Part shown: one piece after another, positions 1-29,609 of the stretch
Numbering within the stretch: the stretch's first letter is position 1
Layout of the letters: the number at the start of each line of letters is the position of its first letter
Assembly: GCA_038227875.1 (NCBI GenBank)
Contig: JBBRPR010000068.1
Coordinates: 1 to 42,650 of the forward strand
Direction: 5' to 3'
DNA length: 42,650 nt
From: Planctomycetota bacterium
GTDB lineage: Bacteria > Planctomycetota > SZUA-567 > H5-PLA8
The notes under the pieces: model-generated
Seen by the model: the letters and a program-made list of their open reading frames with translations, nothing else
Told to the model about the DNA's origin: nothing
The model's database searches: none
Position numbers and translations under genes: made by a program

Positions 1-2
1 AA

Positions 3-512
3 ACGTGTCTCCCGCTGCCTGCGGCCCCATCCTGCCAACCTCTTCCACTATCTCGTCACTTTCCATTTTCATCGCTCCCATACCTTTCTTCATCGGCACG
101 GGACGCTCTTCAATTTTCAACAATCAGTGGGACGCTTCCGAGTCTTCTTGTCGTAGAAGATGAAACGGACGCTCGTGACCTTATCGCTTTTGCATTGCGG
201 CAAGCCGGTGCGCAAGTAAAGGCGACAGCATCAGTTCAAGAGGCACTCGAAAGCTTTTGCGAAAAAAAGCCCGACGCGATTGTCTCAGACCTTGGGATGC
301 CCGTTGAAGATGGTTTTGTTCTCATTCGGAAGGTTCGAGAACTTGAAGCCAAAAATGGAACGCGCACGCCCGCTATTGCATTGACCGCTTATGCGCAAGA
401 CGTTGACCGCGTTCGATGTTTGGCATCCGGCTTCAACATGCACATTCCAAAACCAATTGACCCCAATGCACTTGTCTTGGCAGTGTCGAACCTTCTGGAA
501 CTGCCTTTGTGA
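3..512 (+). CDS. C-terminal part of a hybrid sensor kinase / response-regulator receiver domain (5'-truncated by the window)
   Basis: Frame is open from position 3. Receiver motifs LLVVEDE, IVSDLGMP (phospho-Asp), IALTA and HIPKP. Confidence 0.85.
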   Translation, partial: TCLPLPAAPSCQPLPLSRHFPFSSLPYLSSSARDALQFSTISGTLPSLLVVEDETDARDLIAFALRQAGAQVKATASVQEALESFCEKKPDAIVSDLGMPVEDGFVLIRKVRELEAKNGTRTPAIALTAYAQDVDRVRCLASGFNMHIPKPIDPNALVLAVSNLLELPL

Positions 513-537
513 ATACTCAGAAAGTTGCTGTCTACCC

Positions 538-1473
538 CTACGTTTTCGGCACCTTCACTTTCGCAAATGCTTCGTTAACTCCGCGCCGCACTCGATTCAA
601 ATATTTTTGTGTCGTGCCCAACCCGCTGTGACCGAGCGCCAGCCGAATCGCTTCAACCGATGCTCCCTGTGAGTCCGCTTCACAGGCAAAGTAATGCCGC
701 AGCGAATGGGGACTGCATCCTTCGGCCAAACCCGCTTTTTTCGCCAGTTTCTTGAATCGCTCGTAAGTGCTGGAAACGCTCAAGCGCCGGTCAGTAGCCA
801 TCGCATTGATGGGCTTTGCGCGAGCCATTGCGATAAACAGCGGCGCGGTTTCATTCAATTCATCCGTGCGCCGTGAAAGATAGCTCAGCACCACAGCCCA
901 TACATCCGGCGAAACGTGGACTTCGCGCTCTTTCTGCCCCTTTCCCGTCACATGAAGCGCCTTCCAATCCTTTTCGTCCGCCTCACGCACGTCGCCCACC
1001 GAAAGCCCACAGATTTCCGAAATGCGTAATCCTGTAGCGGCCATCAGCAAGAACATCGCCCGGTCCCGCAACTGAGCCATTGAATGCCCGCCAGCCTTCT
1101 CAAAGAGCGCCTTAATCCCTTCCGGCGTCAGACCACGGGGTTTTCCGGCTGGCGGGACTGGCGGCACGTCCACAAATTGCAGCGGGTCTTCTTTGAGTTC
1201 CCGCTCCCGGACAAGGAAGTTGAAAAAAGCCTTAACGATGACAACCTTACGATGGATGGTCGCGGGCTTGAGATTTTGGCGGCGACATGATTCAATGTAC
1301 CCGCGCAAATCGCTCGCAGTGACGTTGTGCGTGGGTTTATTGACCCATTGCAGGAAGATTCGCAACTCGCTGGAATAGACCCGCTGAGTGCCCGCAGGAC
1401 GCCCAAGAATGAACGATGCAACCAGCGCGTCATCGTTGCGGGTCTTCTGGATAATGCGGAGTGCGGCGCTCAT
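538..1473 (-). CDS. XerC/XerD-like tyrosine recombinase
   Basis: N-terminal SAM-like core-binding region. Full catalytic set: TGLRISE (R), GKGQKER (K), HSLRH, LGH, TTQKY (Y). Confidence 0.95.
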   Translation of the reverse strand: MSAALRIIQKTRNDDALVASFILGRPAGTQRVYSSELRIFLQWVNKPTHNVTASDLRGYIESCRRQNLKPATIHRKVVIVKAFFNFLVRERELKEDPLQFVDVPPVPPAGKPRGLTPEGIKALFEKAGGHSMAQLRDRAMFLLMAATGLRISEICGLSVGDVREADEKDWKALHVTGKGQKEREVHVSPDVWAVVLSYLSRRTDELNETAPLFIAMARAKPINAMATDRRLSVSSTYERFKKLAKKAGLAEGCSPHSLRHYFACEADSQGASVEAIRLALGHSGLGTTQKYLNRVRRGVNEAFAKVKVPKT

Positions 1474-2513
1474 GACAGTGTTCTCCCGGAAACCTTCAAT
1501 CCGTGGTGATTCCGCAAATGTTCAATTCCGTTGCGCGTCAAGACTCGCCCGCGCCCGGTTTTCACAATCAAGCCACGGTGCATCAAGAATGGCTCGACAG
1601 TTTCTTCAAGCGCCCTTTGGTCTTCGCCCACCAGCGATGCCAGCGTGTTCAAACCGACCGGCTGGCCAAGATTGTTGGAAAGCAGTTTCAGCACTTCAAC
1701 ATCGAGCCGCGCCAGTCCGATTGGGTCGATGCACAAAGATTCGAATGCGGCCTCACAAATGGCTGTGCTCACCGTGGTCTTGTTCTTGCCGATGGAGATG
1801 TCACGCACTTGCTCACACAGCGCCACAATTTTGCGCGGCACTCCACGGCCACGCGATGCAATGAGCGCTGCCTGTTTGTTCCCGCACTTGAGGCTGAACT
1901 TTTCGAGAACTTGCCGAGCAATCTTCGCGGAGTCATTTTGGTCGTATGGTTCCAGCCGGAGATTCAGTCGCAGCCGGTCCCGAAGCGATGTCGTCAAATC
2001 GCCCGGACGGTTGCTGGCCATCACAAGCGTAAAGCAGGGAACCCATTCGCGTGTAGGAGTCATCATGCCGGTGATTGGGTTGCGGATGATGGATTCAAGC
2101 ACCCGGTCTTCAACCGCGCCGTACAGCAATTCTTGGCTATGGCGCGGGAGCCGGTGCGCTTCATCGACCAGTAGCACCGTGGGCTTTGTGGCACCGACTA
2201 CGTTCCCCTTGCCATCGTACCCGTGGTCATCCAGTTTCGAGAGAAGCCCTTTAACATCGGAAGAATTATCCAGCGCTTCTGCCGTCGTAGACACAAAACC
2301 AATGCCCATTTCAATAGCAATGAGCCGAGCGAGCGATGTCTTGCCGAGTCCAGCAGCGCCCGTAAGCAATGTATGTGGGAATGGCGCGTTGCGTTTATGG
2401 GATGCAGCCGCCGTAGTCCGAATCAATTCCTTCAAATGATTTTGGCCGACGAATTCCGATAGTGTTTCCGGTCGGATGCCATTCAGGGTTTCGTTTGAAT
2501 CGAGCGTGCTCAT
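1470..2513 (-). CDS. ruvB: Divergent RuvB-like Holliday-junction branch-migration AAA+ ATPase
   Basis: IRP..L.EFVGQ, Walker A GAAGLGKT, Walker B LLVDEAHRL, SLRDR, RGVPR and a C-terminal winged helix (PVGLNTLA...VEPFL...TGRGR). Its stop overlaps the recombinase ATG (ATGA). Confidence 0.9.
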   Translation of the reverse strand: MSTLDSNETLNGIRPETLSEFVGQNHLKELIRTTAAASHKRNAPFPHTLLTGAAGLGKTSLARLIAIEMGIGFVSTTAEALDNSSDVKGLLSKLDDHGYDGKGNVVGATKPTVLLVDEAHRLPRHSQELLYGAVEDRVLESIIRNPITGMMTPTREWVPCFTLVMASNRPGDLTTSLRDRLRLNLRLEPYDQNDSAKIARQVLEKFSLKCGNKQAALIASRGRGVPRKIVALCEQVRDISIGKNKTTVSTAICEAAFESLCIDPIGLARLDVEVLKLLSNNLGQPVGLNTLASLVGEDQRALEETVEPFLMHRGLIVKTGRGRVLTRNGIEHLRNHHGLKVSGRTLS

Positions 2514-2674
2514 TTCAAAAGCCTTTCATTAAAAAGTCACACTTTTAACAACGTTTGAGGTCGGTGATTTGCCAAATAATTTCGAGAAATATCGAAGCGA
2601 AAATAAATTGCTGAATTGTTTGGAATCCGGCGCACTTGCCGCGTTAATTAAAATGTACATTCAGGAGAGAGAGC

Positions 2675-3265
2675 GTGGATACCAATGGAAAAATACAGGA
2701 ATCCGTACTGGATGACTGGCTCCGACAAGGTAAGGAGTTGGTCATGTCCACAATGAAGAGGCTTCGAATCCAGCGTGACCTATGCCCACTCATGTCGAGT
2801 GATTCAGACCGCGCCAAGTTGCTCCCCAAGTTTGCGGAATTGAACACCGACATTGACCGGCGCTGCGAAGCAATGCGCAAACTGGAAAATGAACATTTCG
2901 GCTGCTCCGCCATATTGGGGCGGGAAGCTGAACGGAACTCGGTATATGTTGCCTGTGTGCTGTTGGCGTTCGCTCGCTTGAATGACTCGCTGGACAGTGA
3001 ATGCCATCTGATTTCGAACATCATGCAGATGGTCGGCACGGACCCATGTGATGCGCTCGTGGTAAGAGACGCATTCAGAACCCAAGGCGCGCTCTATGAA
3101 CACGTGGAAATTTCGGACGCTTCGGCGATTGACCATGCACACGCGCAGATTTCGGAGGTGGCGCTCAATAAAGTGCTCGGACGTGATTCCACGCCGTATG
3201 AGGAGTACCTGCACGTGAAGAACATCATGGAAGTGGTTTCGGAGAGGACAAAGACGCGGCGATGA
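2675..3265 (+). CDS. Hypothetical protein
   Basis: 196-aa ORF with AGGAG upstream of a GTG start; no recognised motif. Confidence 0.65.
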   Translation: MDTNGKIQESVLDDWLRQGKELVMSTMKRLRIQRDLCPLMSSDSDRAKLLPKFAELNTDIDRRCEAMRKLENEHFGCSAILGREAERNSVYVACVLLAFARLNDSLDSECHLISNIMQMVGTDPCDALVVRDAFRTQGALYEHVEISDASAIDHAHAQISEVALNKVLGRDSTPYEEYLHVKNIMEVVSERTKTRR

Positions 3266-3489
3266 AGTGACTTGCGACGGTCGCCACAGGATACGACGAC
3301 AATCCCCCTTTTTGCAAATGACCAAGTCATAAAAGCTGAACGTGTGTTCGTGAATTATTTTTTGGAAATGGTATTTGGTTTTGCGGGTTCAAGGAATTCA
3401 ATGTCGTATTAAATTTTGAATACGATGGGAGATTTCACGTTTGGCTGTTCGGTAAATCTCGGATTTCGAGTTTTTTAAAAGGGTATTTT

Positions 3490-3789
3490 TCACGATAACC
3501 TGCGCAGTTTTTTGAGAGGCGTGGGCTGGAAATTATGGTCACGCTCTATCGGCAGACCGCACACCACGGTTTCTTCCAGTTCCTCAAGGGAGAAATATCC
3601 AAGCTCTTCTTCTTGGCATTGAACCAGCCCGAAAAATATTTTTGTTGTCGGATTATACTCCGTGGCGTAGGCAGTGTAATTCGAGAGCGGATGGAAATAC
3701 TTCACGTAAGCGATTGCTTCGTCGCCTTTACCGTCCTGCGAATACAACGGCGGTAAGCGCTCTTGGTCAGCTTTGGTTAGCAGGTTCAT
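3490..3789 (-). CDS. DUF2958-family protein (mobile-element associated)
   Basis: LPPLYSQD...VKYFHP...ATEY...FFGLV...ELGYFSLEELE...LPIERD pattern; GGAGA RBS. Confidence 0.85.
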   Translation of the reverse strand: MNLLTKADQERLPPLYSQDGKGDEAIAYVKYFHPLSNYTAYATEYNPTTKIFFGLVQCQEEELGYFSLEELEETVVCGLPIERDHNFQPTPLKKLRRLS

Positions 3790-3940
3790 GGTATCAGTCT
3801 CCGTTGGTCCAAAATAATTAACGCAGAGCTACTCCTGCTTTCTAAGAAATTCCCGTATAAAATTCAGGCGACTCGGACTGTCGAGTTCCTTCCGTGACGT
3901 GCCCGTTGTTTTACTTAGTGCGCGTGATATAATCGGATTC

Positions 3941-4576
3941 ATGGCTGACCCTGATACCGCACATTTAATCAGCGACTACAACATCCAACTCTGGATGATG
4001 ATTTCAAATTGCGTAATGGCACTAGCAACCGTTGTACTTGGTATCTTTTCCATATTATTTGTGCGCAAGCAGAATGCGATTCTCGGCAACCAAACAGCGA
4101 CCATGAGCAAGCAAAATGAAATTATTGCAAATCAGGTCGATGTTGAAAGCAACACTTTAAAACTTGAGTTATATGATAAGCGTTTCGATGTGTTCGCGTC
4201 GGTAATGGACATGCTTGTAAACTTGCCTTTAGTCGAAGACGACAATGTTGATGACAAAATTTTTAATCAGTTTGAGGCGAGTGTCCTACACGGACAGCTA
4301 ATGCTTTCTAAGGATGTGTGGGAATACGTGCTCCAAGTTCAATTCAAGGTCAAGGAGTATGTAGACCTGTATTGTGCATACACGCAAATTGGCTGTACTG
4401 GTACACCAATGGGAATAAGACAGGGTAGACGCTTGAAAGGCGAAGGGGAGACTGCAAAACACAAAGAGTTAGTAGAATGGTTTAGAAGTCAGCCGAAAAT
4501 TGCACTTGAAAAATTTAGGAAGGACTTAGACCTAACGAATATTATGGATGCTTCAACACGTGGCGTCAAGATTTGA
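3941..4576 (+). CDS. Hypothetical protein with N-terminal TM helix followed by a coiled-coil-like segment
   Basis: Hydrophobic stretch ISNCVMALATVVLGIFSILFV, then a Q/N-rich heptad region and KLELYDKRF; AT-rich coding. Start at ATG 3941 is a guess. Confidence 0.7.
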   Translation: MADPDTAHLISDYNIQLWMMISNCVMALATVVLGIFSILFVRKQNAILGNQTATMSKQNEIIANQVDVESNTLKLELYDKRFDVFASVMDMLVNLPLVEDDNVDDKIFNQFEASVLHGQLMLSKDVWEYVLQVQFKVKEYVDLYCAYTQIGCTGTPMGIRQGRRLKGEGETAKHKELVEWFRSQPKIALEKFRKDLDLTNIMDASTRGVKI

Positions 4577-4652
4577 AGATAAATCGCAAATCGAGCACTT
4601 TCCCACTTCATGCTTACTCATACGCGCCAGAATCACCAGCATGAATAGCGGT

Positions 4653-5930
4653 TTAACCAGCGTGAACTACCGGCAATTCAGACCACCGCGTAGTGAACCG
4701 GGGTGACCTGCACAGGAACTTGGTCTTCCAAGTTTGTCGAAACCCCGTCGCAGCATAATGAATAGTTCCGGCTCCCATGTTCGCGTTAAGACTGTCCATC
4801 GCTGCCGATAATTTACCATCCCGTTCCCGGTTTCGTTCGTCAAAAAGATTGGCTTGGGCGCGGTTCGCCGGTACAAGCTCGTTCAGCAACACTCCCGCCT
4901 TTGAATATCGGTAGCCCTCACGAAAAATTGTATCCAGCCCTTGCAAAGCGTATCGAATCAACTCGCTCGTGTCAGCGGTCTGCACAGGAAGCACAATATT
5001 TACCGCGTTGCTGTACTGCGGTTCATCCTTCCTGAAATGGTTGGTGTGGACGAAGACGGTCAAGTAGCTTGCCGCCAAGCCGGAACGCCGCGCTTTTTCC
5101 GCTGCGCGACTGCAATACGATGCCACAGCTTCTTGCATTTCGGCCAGCGTTTCAATGGGGCGGGAGAATCCACGCGATACACAGATGTTCTTTTTGTGCG
5201 GTGGATGCAGGTCCAACGAGATACAGGGCGTGCCGCGAAGCTCAAGGACCGTGCGCACTACCACGATGCCGAAACGCGCTTTGAGCCAGCGTACATCCGC
5301 GCCACGTAGGTCCAGCGCAGTGAGGATTCCGCGAGCCTTGAGGACGCGGCTTATCCCCGGCCCGATGCCCCACACGTCTTCCACGGCAATCCGGGAGAGA
5401 AGCGAATCCCGCTCTGAATCTGGCAGCACCGTAAGGTCCAGCACGCCATTGGTTGAGAACTTCTTGGCGGCGCGATTGGCGAGCTTTGCGAGTGTCTTCG
5501 TTCCCGCGATGCCAACAGATACGGGAATTCCGGTGCATCTTTTCACTGTGGCCCGGACGTGCTTGGCATAATCGGTCAAATTGCGTTCGCCAAGGTCCGC
5601 CAAATTCAAAAAAGCTTCGTCGATGCTGTAGACTTCCATTTCCGGCGCGCATTGCCGAAGCGTCTCCATGACCCGCCGCGACATATCTCCATACAGTGCG
5701 TAGTTCGAAGAGTACATCTGGACGCCGTGGGTCTTTATCACGTCCTTTATTTCAAAGACGGGGACGCCCATTGCGATTCCAAGGGCTTTGGCTTCCGGGG
5801 AACGTGAAACAACGCAGCCGTCGTTATTTGACATGACGATAACCGGCTTGCCTTCGAGCTTCGGGTTGAATACCCGCTCACAGGAGACGTAGAAATTATT
5901 GCAATCCACCAGAGCGTAAGTCGGTGACAT
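4653..5930 (-). CDS. umuC: Y-family DNA polymerase V catalytic subunit
   Basis: [37 protein letters not shown] and C-terminal [12 protein letters not shown]. Confidence 0.96.
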
Positions 5931-5935
5931 GGTTT

Positions 5936-6364
5936 TCAGACCGGATGAATGACGTTTGTGACAACGCCCCAAATCGCGACATCGGTTTCGTCATAAATAT
6001 TCAAGGGCGCGTAATCAGGGTTATCGGATTCCAGCGAAACAACGTTCCCGCGCTTGTGGAGCCGCTTCACGGCCAGTTCGCCGTCAATGACCGCGACGAC
6101 GACGCTTCCATGAACAGCTTCCTTGGCGCGGTCTACGACCAGCAAGTCGCCGGAATGAATATGTCCTATCATCGAGTCGCCGGAAGCCCGCACGAAGAAT
6201 GTTGCGGCGGGATGTTTGATAAGATGTTCGTTCAAGTCCAGCGAGCGTTCAATGTAATCGTCGGCGGGCGAAGGGAAGCCAGCGGGAATTGGAGCCGCAA
6301 ACAGGGGACGCCAACAGCGGCTTGCAGTCTTGGCCGGATGGATGCTCTCCGTGTGTGTTGGCAT
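5936..6364 (-). CDS. umuD: DNA polymerase V accessory subunit (S24 autopeptidase)
   Basis: AGFPSPA cleavage site, GDSM catalytic Ser, VKRL catalytic Lys; directly upstream of umuC. Confidence 0.95.
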
Positions 6365-6570
6365 GTTTTTCCCCCGGACGCCCCAACTACCAATTAGATG
6401 TTTATTAGGGCGCAGGAAGTAGGTCAAGTCAGCTAATAAAACATTGTCCGTTCAACGCGCTGAGCAGTGCTCTTTTAGAGCATAGGTCTTCCAGATGAGG
6501 CGGACGAAAACCCATTTTAATGTGTAACATTTGTGTAACGTATGAAAAATGTTCATAGGTGCGAAAGTGT

Positions 6571-6607
6571 TTACGAAAGCATTGCTCTACCGCTGAGCTA
6601 AGATGGC
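6571..6607 (-). tRNA. 5' half of tRNA-Thr(CGT), truncated after the anticodon loop (att junction)
   Basis: Minus strand reads GCCATCT TA GCTC AGCGGTA GAGC A ATGCT TT-CGT-AA. The expected AGCAT stem strand, T-arm and AGATGGC do not follow. Confidence 0.88.
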
Positions 6608-6642
6608 GAGGAGGAAACTCCGTGCGGGATGCTTCGTCGAAG

Positions 6643-6670
6643 ATTATGCAGAAACCGATTCCACTTTCAA
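6643..6670 (-). promoter_or_regulatory. Sigma70-like promoter of the tRNA-Thr
   Basis: TTGAAA-16 bp-CATAAT on the minus strand, ~35 nt upstream of tRNA G1. Confidence 0.6.
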
Positions 6671-6731
6671 GCGCGTTGCACAAACTCTCTACTTTCTCGC
6701 TGTAATTTTTTTTCGACGCTGTTCTCTCCCT

Positions 6732-8720
6732 TCACTTTTCTGTCGGCACCACAATGCCGCGCATGATCAGGTTTTGGCAGAAGATGAAGACCAGCAGCGT
6801 CGGCACGGCTGCGATCACCAGCGCAGCGAAGACCACAGCGGGATGAACCTGGCTCTGCAGCTGGTACAGCCACACCATCAGTGTCCACATGCGCTGATCG
6901 GGAATGATAATCAGCGCGACCATGAACGCGCTGTACGCGCCGTTGAAGGCGTCGAGCGCGGTGACGGCGAGAATTGGCTTCGACAGCGCCATCGTGAATG
7001 TCCAGAATTTCGTCCATTCACTTGCTCCATCAATCTCGGCGGCTTCGTACAGTTCCTGTGGAAGGCTGTCGAAAAATCCTTTCAGCAGGAAAATGGAGAA
7101 GCCGTTGGCCATGCTCGGGAGCACCAGCGCGGCGAACGTGTTGAGCAGGCTGACGTGAATGTCGCCGACGAGCACCGGCACAATCCATAATCCGGCCACC
7201 ATCGCGACGCCTAGTGAGATCAGTGCGCGAATCGTATCCTGCATCTGGGCCTTCACTTTTCCCAGGATGATCCAGGCGATCACAAAGGCGATTGTGCCAC
7301 CCACGAGTGCGGCGACGGGAAAACTGCGCTTCAGCAAAAAGCCGGGGATCATCGTCACTTCGCCGGGGAAAGCCATCGTCGCCATGCAGAACAACAACAC
7401 GGAGTAGGTGCTCGGTGGTTTAAAGCGGCTGAGGCTGTATGCGGCAAGCGGGTTGACGATCAGCGACGTCAGGATCGCCAGCGCGCAGTAGATAAACGTG
7501 TTCCAGACACCATCGCCATGCATGACGACGTACTCCAGAACGTGCTTGTAATTCCGCGTCGAGAATTCCCAGCGCAGGTCCTTGTGGTTGACCTGCGTGT
7601 CGTGATAGTCGGCTTCGTACGTGGGCAACGGAATTGGCGGAACTTTGTCGAGCGCGATGCCACGCTTGGCGGAGACGAATTCTTCGAAGGCCTGGCGCGA
7701 TCCATAGACCTCCAGCGCCCCAGTGGGGCATTGGTCACTGCGCAGAAAGCCTTCCCAATCGACTTGCGAGAGCCTGTCGCCCGGGGCGATGTGGGGGAAG
7801 GGGAGGTCATTGAAACTGGCGTAACTGGTTTTGAATTTGGCGTTGAACTGCGCGATGTTTTCATAGCGCGACGAAATGAACGTGCGGTATGTGGCTGCTT
7901 GCGATTCGTCGATGCGAATGGCATCGAGCGAAAGCTGCTCTCGGACGAACTTATCCCAGTCCTCCCGTGTCAGTCCCGACGCGGGTGCACGGCGCGTCAG
8001 CAGAATTTCGTTGTAGCTGCCATATGCGGAACCGTGTTTCTTGTTGTACTCTCCAATGTTCTCCGTGTAGGTGGGCATCAAAAAACTTTTGGTGAAGCGA
8101 CCGTCAAAATTGATGATGGCCCGGTCTTCAATCGGACGTGTCTGCGCGAAAGTCAGGAACGCCTGAACCAGAGGATTGTCCTGATTCGAAAAGCGGAACG
8201 GGTTGGGCATCGGCGGCGGGCGGACGTCGTTCCATGATTTCACCGGCAGCTTCATTTCTGTCGCGAACGCGTCGAGATTGCCCTTGTACTTTTCCTGCAT
8301 GTACGCGCGAAAGATACGTGCATTGGCCTGCAGGAACTGACCGGTGTTTGTATGCCCCAGCCACCACCAGTGGCAATCCTTGCGCCATTCCAGGAAGTCG
8401 TCGAGGTACTCGGACTGTTTTGTCGGCGCGGGAATCTTGTCCCAGATGCCGACGCGTTGTCCCCACTGAATTTCCGCCTGATCCAGCGAACCGTTGTACT
8501 TGGACTCCGCGTACTTCTGAAACAGCGGCAGTTCCTCAAACCAGTATGGTGGATAGGCGGTCATGTCGTTGCAGTCGGCGGCGCTCTTGACCGAACCGGT
8601 GAGCATCAGGATCAGGGGGTAAATCATCGACGCCGCGCCGATCAACAGCACGACAAAGAGCGTGCCATAGACGGCGCGCACCCGTATGCTCTTGGATCCG
8701 ACGTGACTGATGATCGGCAT
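6732..8720 (-). CDS. Carbohydrate ABC transporter permease (MalG-type) with a large periplasmic insertion
   Basis: EAA motif LPQELYEAAEIDGASEW, AAYSLSRF and multiple TM helices; start at MPIISH after a GAGG RBS. Confidence 0.9.
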   Translation of the reverse strand: MPIISHVGSKSIRVRAVYGTLFVVLLIGAASMIYPLILMLTGSVKSAADCNDMTAYPPYWFEELPLFQKYAESKYNGSLDQAEIQWGQRVGIWDKIPAPTKQSEYLDDFLEWRKDCHWWWLGHTNTGQFLQANARIFRAYMQEKYKGNLDAFATEMKLPVKSWNDVRPPPMPNPFRFSNQDNPLVQAFLTFAQTRPIEDRAIINFDGRFTKSFLMPTYTENIGEYNKKHGSAYGSYNEILLTRRAPASGLTREDWDKFVREQLSLDAIRIDESQAATYRTFISSRYENIAQFNAKFKTSYASFNDLPFPHIAPGDRLSQVDWEGFLRSDQCPTGALEVYGSRQAFEEFVSAKRGIALDKVPPIPLPTYEADYHDTQVNHKDLRWEFSTRNYKHVLEYVVMHGDGVWNTFIYCALAILTSLIVNPLAAYSLSRFKPPSTYSVLLFCMATMAFPGEVTMIPGFLLKRSFPVAALVGGTIAFVIAWIILGKVKAQMQDTIRALISLGVAMVAGLWIVPVLVGDIHVSLLNTFAALVLPSMANGFSIFLLKGFFDSLPQELYEAAEIDGASEWTKFWTFTMALSKPILAVTALDAFNGAYSAFMVALIIIPDQRMWTLMVWLYQLQSQVHPAVVFAALVIAAVPTLLVFIFCQNLIMRGIVVPTEK

Positions 8721-8728
8721 GAAATCCT

Positions 8729-11341
8729 CTAGACCTTTTCCGTCGACTTGAATTCCATGTTGCGCAATCGCTTCAACTGGATCACGGTGAATCCGATTAA
8801 CATCGACCCCAGGATCCACGCCATCGCCGTCGCCGGCCCGAAGCGCAAGTATGCGAACGACTCCCAATAGATGTGAAGGCCCACGACTTCCGTCTGCCCG
8901 TTGGGCGTGTACGGTCCGCCGCCGGTCATAACGAGAATATTCTGCCCGCCGCTTTTCATCCCGCCGATCAACGCGCCGATGAAATTGATCGTGATTAACG
9001 CCCGGATACTCGGCAGTGCCACGTAGAAAATCTTTTTTGTCACGCCGGCGCCATCAATGTCGGCGGCTTCGTAAATCTCTTCGGGAATCGTCTTCAGCGC
9101 GGCGAGGTAGATTAGGCAACCCGGACCCATCCCGGCCCAGATCGTCGGCAACAGGCAACAGATCAGCGCCGCCTGGGGCGACGTCAGCCATGCGGTGTGG
9201 TGCTCGGGAACATGCAAGCCCGGAATGTAGTTGATGACTTTGACGCAGAAGTTGACCAGCTGATTCAACGTGCCTTCAGGCGAATAGAAATTCTTCCACA
9301 GGAACATCACGACAACACCAGAGAGCACCGCGGGCAGGTAGTAGATGGTGCGGAAGAGCGTTTTGCCCTTCGGCACTTCGCTGAGCAAAAATGCCAGGGC
9401 AATGGGCGCGCAGAAGCCGAAGATCATCGACAGGAACGCGTACTGCAGCGAGACCCACATTGCGTACCAGAATTCCTGGTCGAAGAGCACGCTGGCGAAA
9501 TTCTCCAAGCCGACCCAATCACTGAAGCCGCGGACATTATAATTCTGGAAGGCCATTACCGTGCCGCGCGCCAGCGGATAATAATCCCACATGGCGATCG
9601 AGATCATCGCCGGAAACAGGCAGATGTACGCCCATTTGTGCTGCTTGATTTTCCAGCCGCCAGGTGCGGTGACGCCTTTCTGCGCAAACGTTGAGAACAC
9701 ATTCCAGAACGTCAGCGAAAAGATGATCAGAATTCCGACGGCGACCAGCAGCGCGATCGTATGCCGGAACGAACGCACTTCCGGCGGAAGTATGTTGAGC
9801 ATCTTCTCGTTGCCGTATGCGACGCGCGCTTTCAGAATCTCGCGGATCGCGTTTTTCGCCGCGACGGCATCACCGCGCTCGATCGCTTCGGTGATGGTGC
9901 TGTCGGTGCGGATCTGGTCGATTGCCTTCGATGCGTATTTGTATACCTGCTGCGTGTTTTCGCCGTACGGCTCGGGCACGCCCAGCGAGACGATCCGGTG
10001 GTACTCTTCTTCCCAGCCTTGCGGAACCTGCGGGACGAATTCCGGATAGCCGGCCGAGCGGAGCAGAGACGGATGCACGAACTGGCCGAGTCCATTCTCG
10101 ACAAACACGCGCGCGCGGATCTGCTGCGCTTCCGGACAATTGTAAAACAGAATGTATTCCCAAGCCGCGTCGCGCTTGACCGGATCGTTTTCCAGGCCCG
10201 CATAGATTCCGGTCATCGACGCATTGAATTCGCCGGCGCTCTGCCCACCCGGTCCCGACGGCGGCGGTCCGAAGCCGTTCGAAGCCGGATCCTTCTTCGA
10301 GAACTGCGTCGATGAGAGGTAATTGTATTCCATGGCAATGCGCAGAGTGGACGTGGATTCATCGCCAAGATAGACGACGCCAGTAAAGTGGCCATACTTG
10401 TTGTCGAACGGTTCCAGAAATAACCGCGCGACGAAATAGTACGCTTCGACGGCGTTTTCAGAATCGAACGCGCAACGCCAGTGACCCTTCTCGTCCTGCT
10501 CCACCAGGCGCCCACCATACGAGTACAGAATATTCAGCGTGCTCCACCCGATTTCACCCAGGTTGAGCGTCAGACCGTACCGGTCCTCTTTCGGGTTGGT
10601 GGTCTTTTTCGCCCAATCGAACATTTCGTCGAGCGTCTTGGGGGCATGGGCTGGCAGACCGGCGTCGTAGAACAAATCCTTGCGGTAAAACAGAGCCATT
10701 ACTTCCGGCGACTGCGGAAAAAACCAGGTGTGCTGATGTTCTTCGACCGGCGCGCCGCCCCAAGCCTTCACGTGCGGACAGTCCTTGCCGTACGGACAGC
10801 GGCGGCGCATCACTTCCCAGCATTGCGGCGTGACACGCTCGCTCAGCGCGGACTCGTAATTCTTGCCCTTTTTCAGCGCCTCCAGATATTCGGGAAACGG
10901 CATCAGGTAGCTGTCTTTGATTTCCACACCCGCGGTCTTCTCAACATACTTGTCGAGGGGGTACAGAAATTTGTTGGCGATGTACGTCGCCGATTGGCGC
11001 AGATTGACGTACATGACTTCCTGCGGAATGTTTCCCGCGATCTGCATCAATGGAACGATGTCCATCGACCGGCCGGGAATTTCCAGGCCCGTCGGTGAGA
11101 TCGGATAAATGTTGGGGAAATGTTTGCGGAACGCCGCCAGAATTTCCAACTGCGCCAATCGTCCCGGATCGGACCCGGCATTGTCGGGTACGCCCCACGC
11201 GCGCAGTACCAGGGGTTGCGTCTGTGTTTGTTCTGGTGCGGTCTCGCCAGCGTTAATCGGGACCTGTGAAGTGGCTCCTACGACTGCAATAATCGTAATA
11301 CACTTTTGTATAAGTCTTTTGTATAGAAACGACTCCACCAT
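8729..11341 (-). CDS. Fusion of carbohydrate solute-binding protein and MalF-type ABC permease
   Basis: Binding-protein motifs LFYRKDLF..AGL and FDSE.AVEA. Permease motifs VGLENF, LFRTIYYLPAV and IYEAADIDGA. Start after an AGGGG RBS. Confidence 0.9.
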   Translation of the reverse strand: MVESFLYKRLIQKCITIIAVVGATSQVPINAGETAPEQTQTQPLVLRAWGVPDNAGSDPGRLAQLEILAAFRKHFPNIYPISPTGLEIPGRSMDIVPLMQIAGNIPQEVMYVNLRQSATYIANKFLYPLDKYVEKTAGVEIKDSYLMPFPEYLEALKKGKNYESALSERVTPQCWEVMRRRCPYGKDCPHVKAWGGAPVEEHQHTWFFPQSPEVMALFYRKDLFYDAGLPAHAPKTLDEMFDWAKKTTNPKEDRYGLTLNLGEIGWSTLNILYSYGGRLVEQDEKGHWRCAFDSENAVEAYYFVARLFLEPFDNKYGHFTGVVYLGDESTSTLRIAMEYNYLSSTQFSKKDPASNGFGPPPSGPGGQSAGEFNASMTGIYAGLENDPVKRDAAWEYILFYNCPEAQQIRARVFVENGLGQFVHPSLLRSAGYPEFVPQVPQGWEEEYHRIVSLGVPEPYGENTQQVYKYASKAIDQIRTDSTITEAIERGDAVAAKNAIREILKARVAYGNEKMLNILPPEVRSFRHTIALLVAVGILIIFSLTFWNVFSTFAQKGVTAPGGWKIKQHKWAYICLFPAMISIAMWDYYPLARGTVMAFQNYNVRGFSDWVGLENFASVLFDQEFWYAMWVSLQYAFLSMIFGFCAPIALAFLLSEVPKGKTLFRTIYYLPAVLSGVVVMFLWKNFYSPEGTLNQLVNFCVKVINYIPGLHVPEHHTAWLTSPQAALICCLLPTIWAGMGPGCLIYLAALKTIPEEIYEAADIDGAGVTKKIFYVALPSIRALITINFIGALIGGMKSGGQNILVMTGGGPYTPNGQTEVVGLHIYWESFAYLRFGPATAMAWILGSMLIGFTVIQLKRLRNMEFKSTEKV

Positions 11342-11469
11342 CAATCCCCTTCGACGACTACTTCTATTCCAGACCGTTAGTGAGGACAACTTTCTAACCG
11401 CGAATTTTCGATTTTCGAGGATCGAATTGAACTTTCGAGAGGGCGGGTGCTGTGGCCATACCAGTTTCT

Positions 11470-29423: not shown

Positions 29424-29609
29424 ATCTCACGCAAAGCCGCGAAGCCGCAAAGAACGGCAACTACAAACGGCTTGGTTAGATTCTGCACGTCGGTAAGCGC
29501 AACGAACAACGCAATTGCTTCCGAAAAGACAGTCGGATGCCTTTGAGCGCCTCTCATTTTTTACGCAGTTCTTGGCCGTTCTTTGCGACTTAGCGGCTTT
29601 GCGTGAGAT
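29424..29609. repeat. 35-bp inverted repeat pair (REP/MITE-like) between convergent genes
   Basis: ATCTCACGCAAAGCCGCGAAGCCGCAAAGAACGGC (29424-29458) versus the reverse complement of 29575-29609; 2 mismatches. Confidence 0.88.

Follow-up and report, generated by a model that had tools for sequence, protein, structure and literature searches.

Tyrosine recombinases are generally regarded as working without a source of energy; the known exception is XerD, which is switched on by the FtsK motor. RuvB, to our knowledge, is thought to act through RuvA only. Excision of CTnDOT involves the tyrosine recombinase IntDOT, with Exc, a relative of topoisomerase III, as its helper. Here, we describe a locus on a 42,650-nucleotide stretch of DNA (the window; contig C68 in the genome of a Planctomycetota bacterium) in which the gene of a RuvB-like AAA+ ATPase overlaps that of an Xer-like tyrosine recombinase. 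The genome (G000) comprises 9.34 Mb in 176 contigs and is 88% complete; domains specific to planctomycetes in a member of the same family are consistent with the phylum assignment. As far as can be judged from the sequences, the two genes are a co-transcribed, translationally coupled, and co-inherited unit encoding a divergent RuvB-type ATPase and an Xer-like recombinase, both with intact catalytic residues. This arrangement, called type A here, suggests a candidate recombinase with a private motor, a pairing that we did not find described.

The cassette resembles several described systems in part. Its nearest working model, by analogy, would be XerD with FtsK at dif: XerD, like XerS, XerH, and XerA, shares with it the simple Xer-type recombinase, and XerD-FtsK also shares the link to a hexameric double-strand DNA motor. 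Unlike FtsK, however, the putative motor of the cassette is an AAA+ protein of the RuvB type and not of the RecA fold, and it shares an operon with the recombinase; furthermore, the cassette is borne on islands and not located at the chromosome terminus, and no dif-like site was found. CTnDOT is similar in that a mobile element has recruited a copy of an enzyme of housekeeping DNA processing as the partner of its tyrosine recombinase, but this helper is another enzyme without sequence relation, and there is no evidence that the cassette excises anything. RuvB itself (TIGR00635/NF000868; PDB entries 7pbl, 6blb, and 1ixs) matches the window ATPase in its three-domain build, its ATPase motifs, and the modelled hairpin and winged-helix head. 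The window protein differs from it in belonging to a separate clade, in scoring below the cut-offs, and in a 14-residue insertion beside helix alpha3; it is not encoded with ruvA, is coupled to a tyrosine recombinase, and is rare and patchy in distribution. Islands in tRNA genes that encode large tyrosine integrases fit the carriers of the cassette (a 44-nucleotide repeat in the relative G006 and a 38-nucleotide repeat shared by the window and contig C11), but the cassette is an extra internal module and not the edge integrase.

A search of the full-text literature, subscription journals and supplements excepted, brought up no account of a tyrosine recombinase with a RuvB-like protein coupled to it. 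As far as the available portions of these papers go, the RuvC of jumbo phages has no RuvB-like ATPase coupled to it (PMC7824862), an archaeal plasmid ATPase shows only weak RuvB similarity (PMC2926602), the words RuvB, ATPase, and helicase have zero occurrences in PMC8138268, and PMC6563490 holds nothing bearing on RuvB-recombinase coupling. A further candidate precedent, PMC4542609, was rejected, as the "ruvB" in the portion available is a misprint for rulB.

Two overlapping genes in the window

The features of the cassette are as follows.

1470..2513, minus strand: RuvB-like AAA+ ATPase (type A), 347 amino acids; open reading frame (ORF) with Pfam RuvB_N, AAA_lid_4, and RuvB_C
538..1473, minus strand: Xer-like tyrosine recombinase (type A), 311 amino acids; ORF with Pfam Phage_integrase and SAM_1
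1470..1473, minus strand: ATGA stop/start overlap of both genes, read directly as tcat on the plus strand
2514..2674, strand not applicable: AT-richer intergenic region 5′ of the cassette, presumed location of the promoter, from reading the sequence

An earlier note on this DNA had described the stop codon of the RuvB-like gene as overlapping the recombinase start in an ATGA, which the letters at 1470-1473 confirm. It had also reported that the window lacks ruvA and ruvC, and the sole matches to these genes in the genome were indeed located on contigs C26 and C27. C26 carries a canonical ruvB (414.6 bits against a cut-off of 299.05) and, close by, the only ruvA copy of the genome; a canonical ruvC is found on C27. 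The host therefore has separate ruvABC genes, the window gene is not its only ruvB but a second, divergent one, and no cognate ruvA lies in the element. The recombinase gene has the RuvB-like gene as its neighbor and adjoins no further Xer-like gene. The intergenic region 2514..2674 contained no conserved site in an alignment with other loci, and a simple sigma-70 scan listed none there.

The large ATPase domain, the small lid domain, and the winged-helix head domain of RuvB are all present in the RuvB-like protein, with Pfam expectation values (E) of 1.6e-33 for RuvB_N, 2.9e-07 for AAA_lid_4, and 8.9e-21 for RuvB_C. Its scores against the RuvB equivalog models of NCBIfam were 252.9 (cut-off, 282) for NF000868 and 225.6 (cut-off, 299.05) for TIGR00635. 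Calling it a full-length RuvB homolog, as had been done, is thus correct for the three domains, but the protein remains below both equivalog cut-offs. Residues R14, G55, G57, K58, D117, E118, E135, R178, R180, and R227 were invariant in 32 clade members. Upon alignment to solved RuvB, G55/G57/K58 correspond to Walker A and D117/E118 to Walker B, and the other invariant positions fall on the N-terminal arginine, the signature E-D, the arginine finger, and the sensor 2 arginine; motif names and residue roles were taken from the pertinent part of a cryo-electron microscopy study of RuvAB (PMC9477746).

An AlphaFold2 model of the protein reached a mean predicted local distance difference test score (pLDDT) of 87.5 and a predicted template modelling score of 0.78. 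The best Foldseek matches of this model were RuvB structures, with template modelling (TM) scores of 0.77 to 0.85 and a top E of 3.9e-30; identity to solved RuvB structures was 30 to 35%. The presensor-1 hairpin is present in the model (strands 138-144 and 151-157), with a sequence unlike that of ordinary RuvB. A clade-specific insertion of 14 residues at approximately positions 96-111 follows helix 84-91 and precedes the Walker B strand (112-117); its block-mean pLDDT was 85 to 87. By the order of elements, helix 84-91 would correspond to alpha3 in the numbering of PMC9477746, and that study, in the part available, describes domain III of RuvA as binding a hydrophobic surface built of alpha3 and the presensor-1 hairpin. 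With an insertion beside the putative alpha3, a different hairpin sequence, and no ruvA in the element, a partner other than RuvA is plausible for this ATPase.

Fusions of the RuvB-like protein to a recombinase or to RuvA were absent from 20 scanned proteins, mostly long forms. Proteins P0327, P0341, P0260, and P0359 were either RuvB with a C-terminal phage XkdF-type serine protease domain or products of intein-interrupted ruvB genes. A one-to-one complex prediction for the RuvB-like protein and the recombinase, based on 32-row alignments, gave a score of 0.00, which is no evidence either way.

The 311-residue recombinase contains Phage_integrase (PF00589; E, 9.5e-29; 100.8 bits) and a SAM-like N domain (PF02899). 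With the catalytic R-K-H-R-H/W-Y set and a two-domain fold, it belongs to the tyrosine recombinase superfamily (PF00589). R150, K178, R259, and Y291 were invariant in the 32 clade members, and H256 and H282 were at least 90% conserved. The protein scored below the equivalog cut-offs of both XerC (TIGR02224; 166.3 versus 335.15) and XerD (TIGR02225; 160.8 versus 329.6) and far under those of XerS and XerA. Its best matches in the Protein Data Bank were the XerC-like 4a8e and XerD (1a0p).

The ratio of nonsynonymous to synonymous substitution rates (dN/dS), determined for the window and the metagenome loci L023 and L024, was 0.09 to 0.10 for the RuvB-like gene and 0.06 to 0.075 for the recombinase gene. 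Purifying selection acts on both genes of the cassette. Owing to the low dN/dS, the invariant ATPase motifs, and the conserved catalytic residues of the recombinase, both genes look functional.

Conservation and distribution of the pair

The type-A loci that were read comprised the window, the metagenome contigs L023, L024, L025, and L026, and L048 from the relative G006. A recombinase of the same clade was found directly downstream of the RuvB-like gene in all five loci other than the window, so that the pairing passed the check for conservation among homologs that the earlier note had proposed. Identity to the window proteins was 88% for the recombinase and 84% for the RuvB-like protein in both L023 and L024, 74% and 63% in L026, 71% and 64% in L025, and 48% and 49% in L048. 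The two genes overlap by 4 nucleotides in four of the six loci (the window, L023, L024, and L025). L026 has an ORF of 145 amino acids and no known family between them (L026:656-1093), which overlaps each gene by 4 nucleotides; for L048, the listed ORFs overlap by 17 nucleotides, with an uncertain true start. Nucleotide homology between the window and L023 spans only 533-2515, ending 2 to 5 bases past the ORFs, and both flanks are unrelated. An all-against-all ORF comparison revealed no other gene common to all type-A loci. On these loci, the adjacency of the two genes exceeds what chance would be expected to produce.

Both proteins form well-delimited groups in a search against 5.8 billion protein clusters. 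The RuvB-like clade comprised 39 clusters with 52 to 84% identity (285 to 647 bits), followed by a drop to ordinary RuvB at approximately 41% and 211 bits; the recombinase clade comprised 32 clusters with 47 to 90% identity (239 to 614 bits), followed by XerD-like proteins at approximately 30% and 124 bits. Fifteen cluster pairs across the two lists had an identical size of the longest contig, and therefore the members of each pair are probably on the same contigs; 3 of the 15 were read directly. Identity to the window proteins correlated between the two genes (r = 0.95; n = 16, consisting of the 15 cluster pairs and G006), in a set whose pairs are mutually related, hence not independent, and mostly matched only by the size of the longest contig. 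A quick maximum-likelihood tree separated 33 type-A proteins from 21 ordinary RuvB proteins, including the genome's own RuvB, across one long branch with a support of 99 in the Shimodaira-Hasegawa-like approximate likelihood ratio test. Type-A RuvB-like proteins thus form a clade of their own; the earlier note had suggested such a tree to look for a mobile-element clade.

The clade is rare. HMMER, run exhaustively over 1.84 billion representatives of clusters at 50% identity, yielded one full-length clade representative at 60% identity, several fragments, and an intermediate protein (P0241) at 46%, and then a continuum of 29 to 40%. One of the 40 nearest relatives of the host (G006) has a clade member; G017, which is counted among the 40, gave only a match of the ordinary RuvB level. 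Two of 401 sampled genomes of the phylum, the host genome included, exceeded 450 bits, and the next best score was 252. No clade member was found in viral contigs. All 61 plasmid records and all 34 phage records were below 60% identity; among the matches listed for either set, identity did not exceed 37%, and the annotated ones were named ruvB. A pattern search of genome contigs returned a single unrelated match (27%), located beside a Mu-transposase fragment.

A second kind of pair (type B) was found on contigs G013:C222 (L095), G013:C463 (L096), and G016:C508 (L097), all of one genus, with RuvB-like genes about 30% identical to that of the window. Here the gene order is reversed compared to type A: a tyrosine recombinase gene of about 500 codons lies upstream, and its stop overlaps the RuvB-like gene of 310 amino acids by 4 nucleotides. 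The type-B recombinase (Phage_integrase; E, 2.6e-9) is unrelated to the type-A enzyme beyond the catalytic domain. The pair is followed by a P-loop protein gene and then by a DUF2201 (VWA-like/metallopeptidase) gene. Since the copies are 89% identical and all located at contig ends, we count them as one multicopy element and not as three cases. None of the 401 phylum genomes contained type B, but the sample omitted both genomes known to hold it. Support in a 42-sequence tree was 99 for type A (together with P0241) and 100 for type B; the two were not joined, and long branches make their placement unsure. Motor-coupled tyrosine recombinases, if they exist as a class, may have arisen more than once, as types A and B.

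Islands carrying the cassette

The surroundings of the cassette are best delimited in G006. There, an integrase gene (L098:4932-6473; 513 amino acids; sole copy of its family) lies 92 bases from tRNA-Arg(TCG) (L098:4763-4839), and a perfect 44-nucleotide repeat, consisting of tRNA positions 1-40 and 4 upstream bases, is found about 44.6 kb away. This stretch has the marks of a tRNA-integrated island: its two ends share part of the tRNA gene as a direct repeat, and an integrase lies beside the tRNA gene. Within the delimited 44.6-kb island, some 32 kb separate the cassette from the end with the tRNA gene and some 11 kb from the distant repeat. Other products of the island are a PriCT-2 primase, which makes the island probably a replicon, and defence-like proteins (ResIII, Schlafen/AlbA_2, Z1, UvrD-like, and TIR); an HTH_17 (excisionase-type) protein follows the recombinase. 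No synteny for this stretch was detected in two genomes of the same genus.

Integration and excision were among the roles that the earlier note had proposed for the pair. The loci do not support such a role with respect to the tRNA island. Because it lies deep inside a G006 island that has its own large integrase at the tRNA gene, the cassette is probably not the integration module of the island. The window genome points the same way: its tRNA-Thr fragment shares a flanking GTTACACAAATGTTACAC repeat with a site beside a 548-residue integrase gene on contig C11. The cassette is an internal module of islands that bear a different integrase at the edge. The integrase family of the C11 protein has six copies of approximately 500 to 550 amino acids in the genome (on C11, C59, C31, C73, C88, and C36), five of them beside tRNA genes. 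A second type-A recombinase runs off the end of contig C88, next to tRNA-Leu and 1.1 kb from the integrase copy on that contig; it is 58% identical to the window enzyme over the last 81 residues.

The other features of the window, including one end of its presumed island, are listed below.

6570..6607, minus strand: positions 1-38 of tRNA-Thr(CGT), att-type direct-repeat core at one island end; 100% identical to the start of C11:13695-13766
6522..6539, minus strand: GTTACACAAATGTTACAC repeat flanking the att core toward the island; only other copy in the genome at C11:13639
4653..6427, minus strand: umuD-umuC-like pair (S24 peptidase and Y-family polymerase by Pfam), island cargo; absent from the other cassette loci
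2675..4576: low-GC stretch with a 196-residue hypothetical protein (plus strand), DUF2958 (minus strand), and a 225-residue hypothetical protein (plus strand)
1..139, strand not applicable: end of a multicopy, assembly-breaking repeat; about 18 other contigs end in a match to it (98 to 100% identity)

The tRNA-Thr piece marks one end of an island, and this much of the earlier description of a tRNA-bounded island holds; an intact tRNA gene is missing, and the other end lies off the contig. ARAGORN called no tRNA genes in the 42,650 bases, and Rfam gave nothing in 1-9000. One extra base upstream of the 38-nucleotide piece matches C11 as well, and the C11 copy of GTTACACAAATGTTACAC lies between tRNA-Thr and the 548-residue integrase-like gene, which begins 145 bases from the tRNA gene and is followed by a type I restriction-modification system. 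Contigs of two sequencing runs diverge at 6570 into a complete tRNA-like sequence; at the joints between assembled contigs and the window, the short sides measured 20 to 56 letters, each from a single contig. The window from 6569 leftwards and C11 up to 13694 would be the two ends of one tRNA-Thr island, with the far end deduced from C11, as C68 and C11 are not joined in the assembly. In a synteny search for the empty site, none of 16 genomes of the family had a close ortholog of the neighboring ABC-transporter gene.

At the left edge, the repeat in 1-139 probably represents the end of a multicopy insertion sequence; the receiver-domain ORF behind it (141-512) has no start codon. The three small genes in 2675..4576 had no match in PADLOC or PHROGs, and only the 196-residue protein has a relative elsewhere, a weak one in L023 (29% identity). 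This protein was considered as a RuvA substitute and rejected: it belongs to no family, gave nothing above 0.85 and no lead in Atlas, and is conserved in one other locus only. A sigma-70-like site at 6670-6643 (minus strand) lies on the outer side of the tRNA fragment and is directed at it.

Further observations concern tRNA fragments and the outer part of the window. The repeated core in C11 and G006 is the 5′ part of the tRNA gene, an unusual side for island insertion. A 13-kb island (L091; G000:C7:60501-73572) is flanked by the intact tRNA-Thr(TGT) gene and by a 40-nucleotide fragment of its 5′ part; with genes for a large terminase and a PriCT-2/AAA_25 primase-helicase, this island looks like a phage satellite. 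The window itself contains two inverted 35-nucleotide copies (29424-29458 and 29575-29609; 97% and 91%) of positions 31-65 of tRNA-Lys(CTT) on contig C24. The copies are separated by 117 bases and have a CN-hydrolase gene on one side and a LOG-family gene on the other; ARAGORN calls no tRNA there. At 8729-11389, an ORF of 886 amino acids combines solute-binding and ABC permease domains and is overlapped by the next ORF, a 711-residue permease; close orthologs of either were absent from the 16 family genomes.

Possible roles of the pair

We tentatively favor the reading, which could well be correct, that the pair constitutes a conserved, horizontally moving recombination cassette whose motor serves its recombinase. 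The ATPase would be a ring-forming motor on double-strand DNA, as RuvB is, and would serve the recombinase instead of RuvA. It could push the Holliday junction made by the recombinase, or it could make the reaction unidirectional by remodelling the complex of recombinase and DNA, similar to the action of FtsK on XerD. As the G006 island looks like an excisable replicon, the likeliest job in a replicating, excisable island would be the resolution of multimers or the rearrangement of an internal site, rather than insertion of the island. A more specific version is possible but doubtful: the recombinase tetramer, still bound to the Holliday junction of its own making, would replace RuvA and load the RuvB-like ring on the junction arms, and ATP-driven branch migration would provide directionality of site-specific recombination or tolerance of mismatched sites.

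Several points weigh against a motor that serves its recombinase. No conserved recombination site was detected in the flanks, whose alignments were without conservation, and k-mers shared between the flanks of different loci were no more frequent than in shuffled controls. The RuvB-like gene of L025 is frameshifted and split over two reading frames, G003:C621 carries a broken RuvB-like remnant without a recombinase, and a distant paralog on G013:C312 has no recombinase as far as the contig goes. Moreover, types A and B do not group in the tree, and hence a single recombinase-linked RuvB lineage is not shown. The type-A loci read number only six, and of these, L023 and L026 derive from the same metagenome and the window and G006 from the same bacterial family. 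Pairwise short BLAST of the flanks revealed only a gene shared by L023 and L024 and one 21-nucleotide motif common to L023 (10776-10796) and L025 (11210-11230). The motif has 20 of 21 bases identical and lies in a short hairpin-like context about 0.8 to 1.3 kb past the recombinase; neither the window nor any of the other loci contains it.

Alternatively, the cassette could be the integration/excision module of a small element of its own, nested in or in tandem with the larger islands, with the motor aiding directionality or excision. Such an element would account for flanks that differ on both sides at every locus, for the two diverged copies in the genome (the window and the C88 fragment), for type-B pairs that lie at contig ends in several copies, like repeated mobile DNA, and for the HTH_17 protein behind the G006 recombinase. 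However, the surroundings of the cassette revealed neither terminal nor att-like repeats and no conserved ends, and a search for repeats in window positions 1-9000 gave nothing convincing. There is also no tRNA gene within 8 kb in L023, L024, L025, L026, or L048, and the homology ends within a few bases of the ORFs. We consider this explanation unlikely.

The ATPase might also not act on Holliday junctions at all. AAA+ partners of transposases, such as MuB, TnsC, and IstB, are a well-known pattern, and the protein could be a regulatory or target-selecting partner of that kind or else the replication helicase or initiator of an integrative plasmid-like element. The PriCT-2 primase, and with it the probable replicon nature of the G006 island, would fit such a role, as would weak matches of the ATPase to a clamp loader and to the phage "DNA transposition protein" family phrog_296 in PHROGs (E, 4e-4). 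The protein nevertheless keeps all three RuvB domains, including the DNA-binding winged-helix head, along with the presensor-1 hairpin, and its model superposes on RuvB; it has no origin-binding domain, and its constant link is to the recombinase and not to a primase. A role away from junctions appears quite unlikely.

That the pair is cargo of a defence island, directed against invading DNA instead of serving the island's own DNA, is improbable. Its neighbors speak for this explanation (TIR, Schlafen/AlbA_2, Z1, a STAND NTPase, a SUKH immunity protein, PD-(D/E)XK, and the type I restriction-modification system on C11), but they differ at every locus. PADLOC-DB v2 gave only weak P-loop matches for the ATPase (best, IetA; E, 4.4e-5) and none for the recombinase, and we know of no defence system consisting of an Xer-like recombinase and RuvB.

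Finally, spare housekeeping ruvB and xerD paralogs lying side by side by chance are disfavored and very improbable: sources that name clade members label them RuvB and XerD, but the adjacency recurs in five of five other loci over 48 to 88% identity, the cassette occurs in only 2 of 401 phylum genomes, both proteins score under the equivalog cut-offs, and the two clades match one to one.

Synthetic junction DNA and the two proteins, both small and soluble, would allow a direct test of the proposal that the motor serves its recombinase. If the pair works as proposed, one recombinase and one ATPase could make a compact tool. A recombinase with its own RuvB-type motor would, if true, be a new way of powering or directing site-specific recombination, and the cassette would provide a natural case of a RuvB that acts without RuvA.

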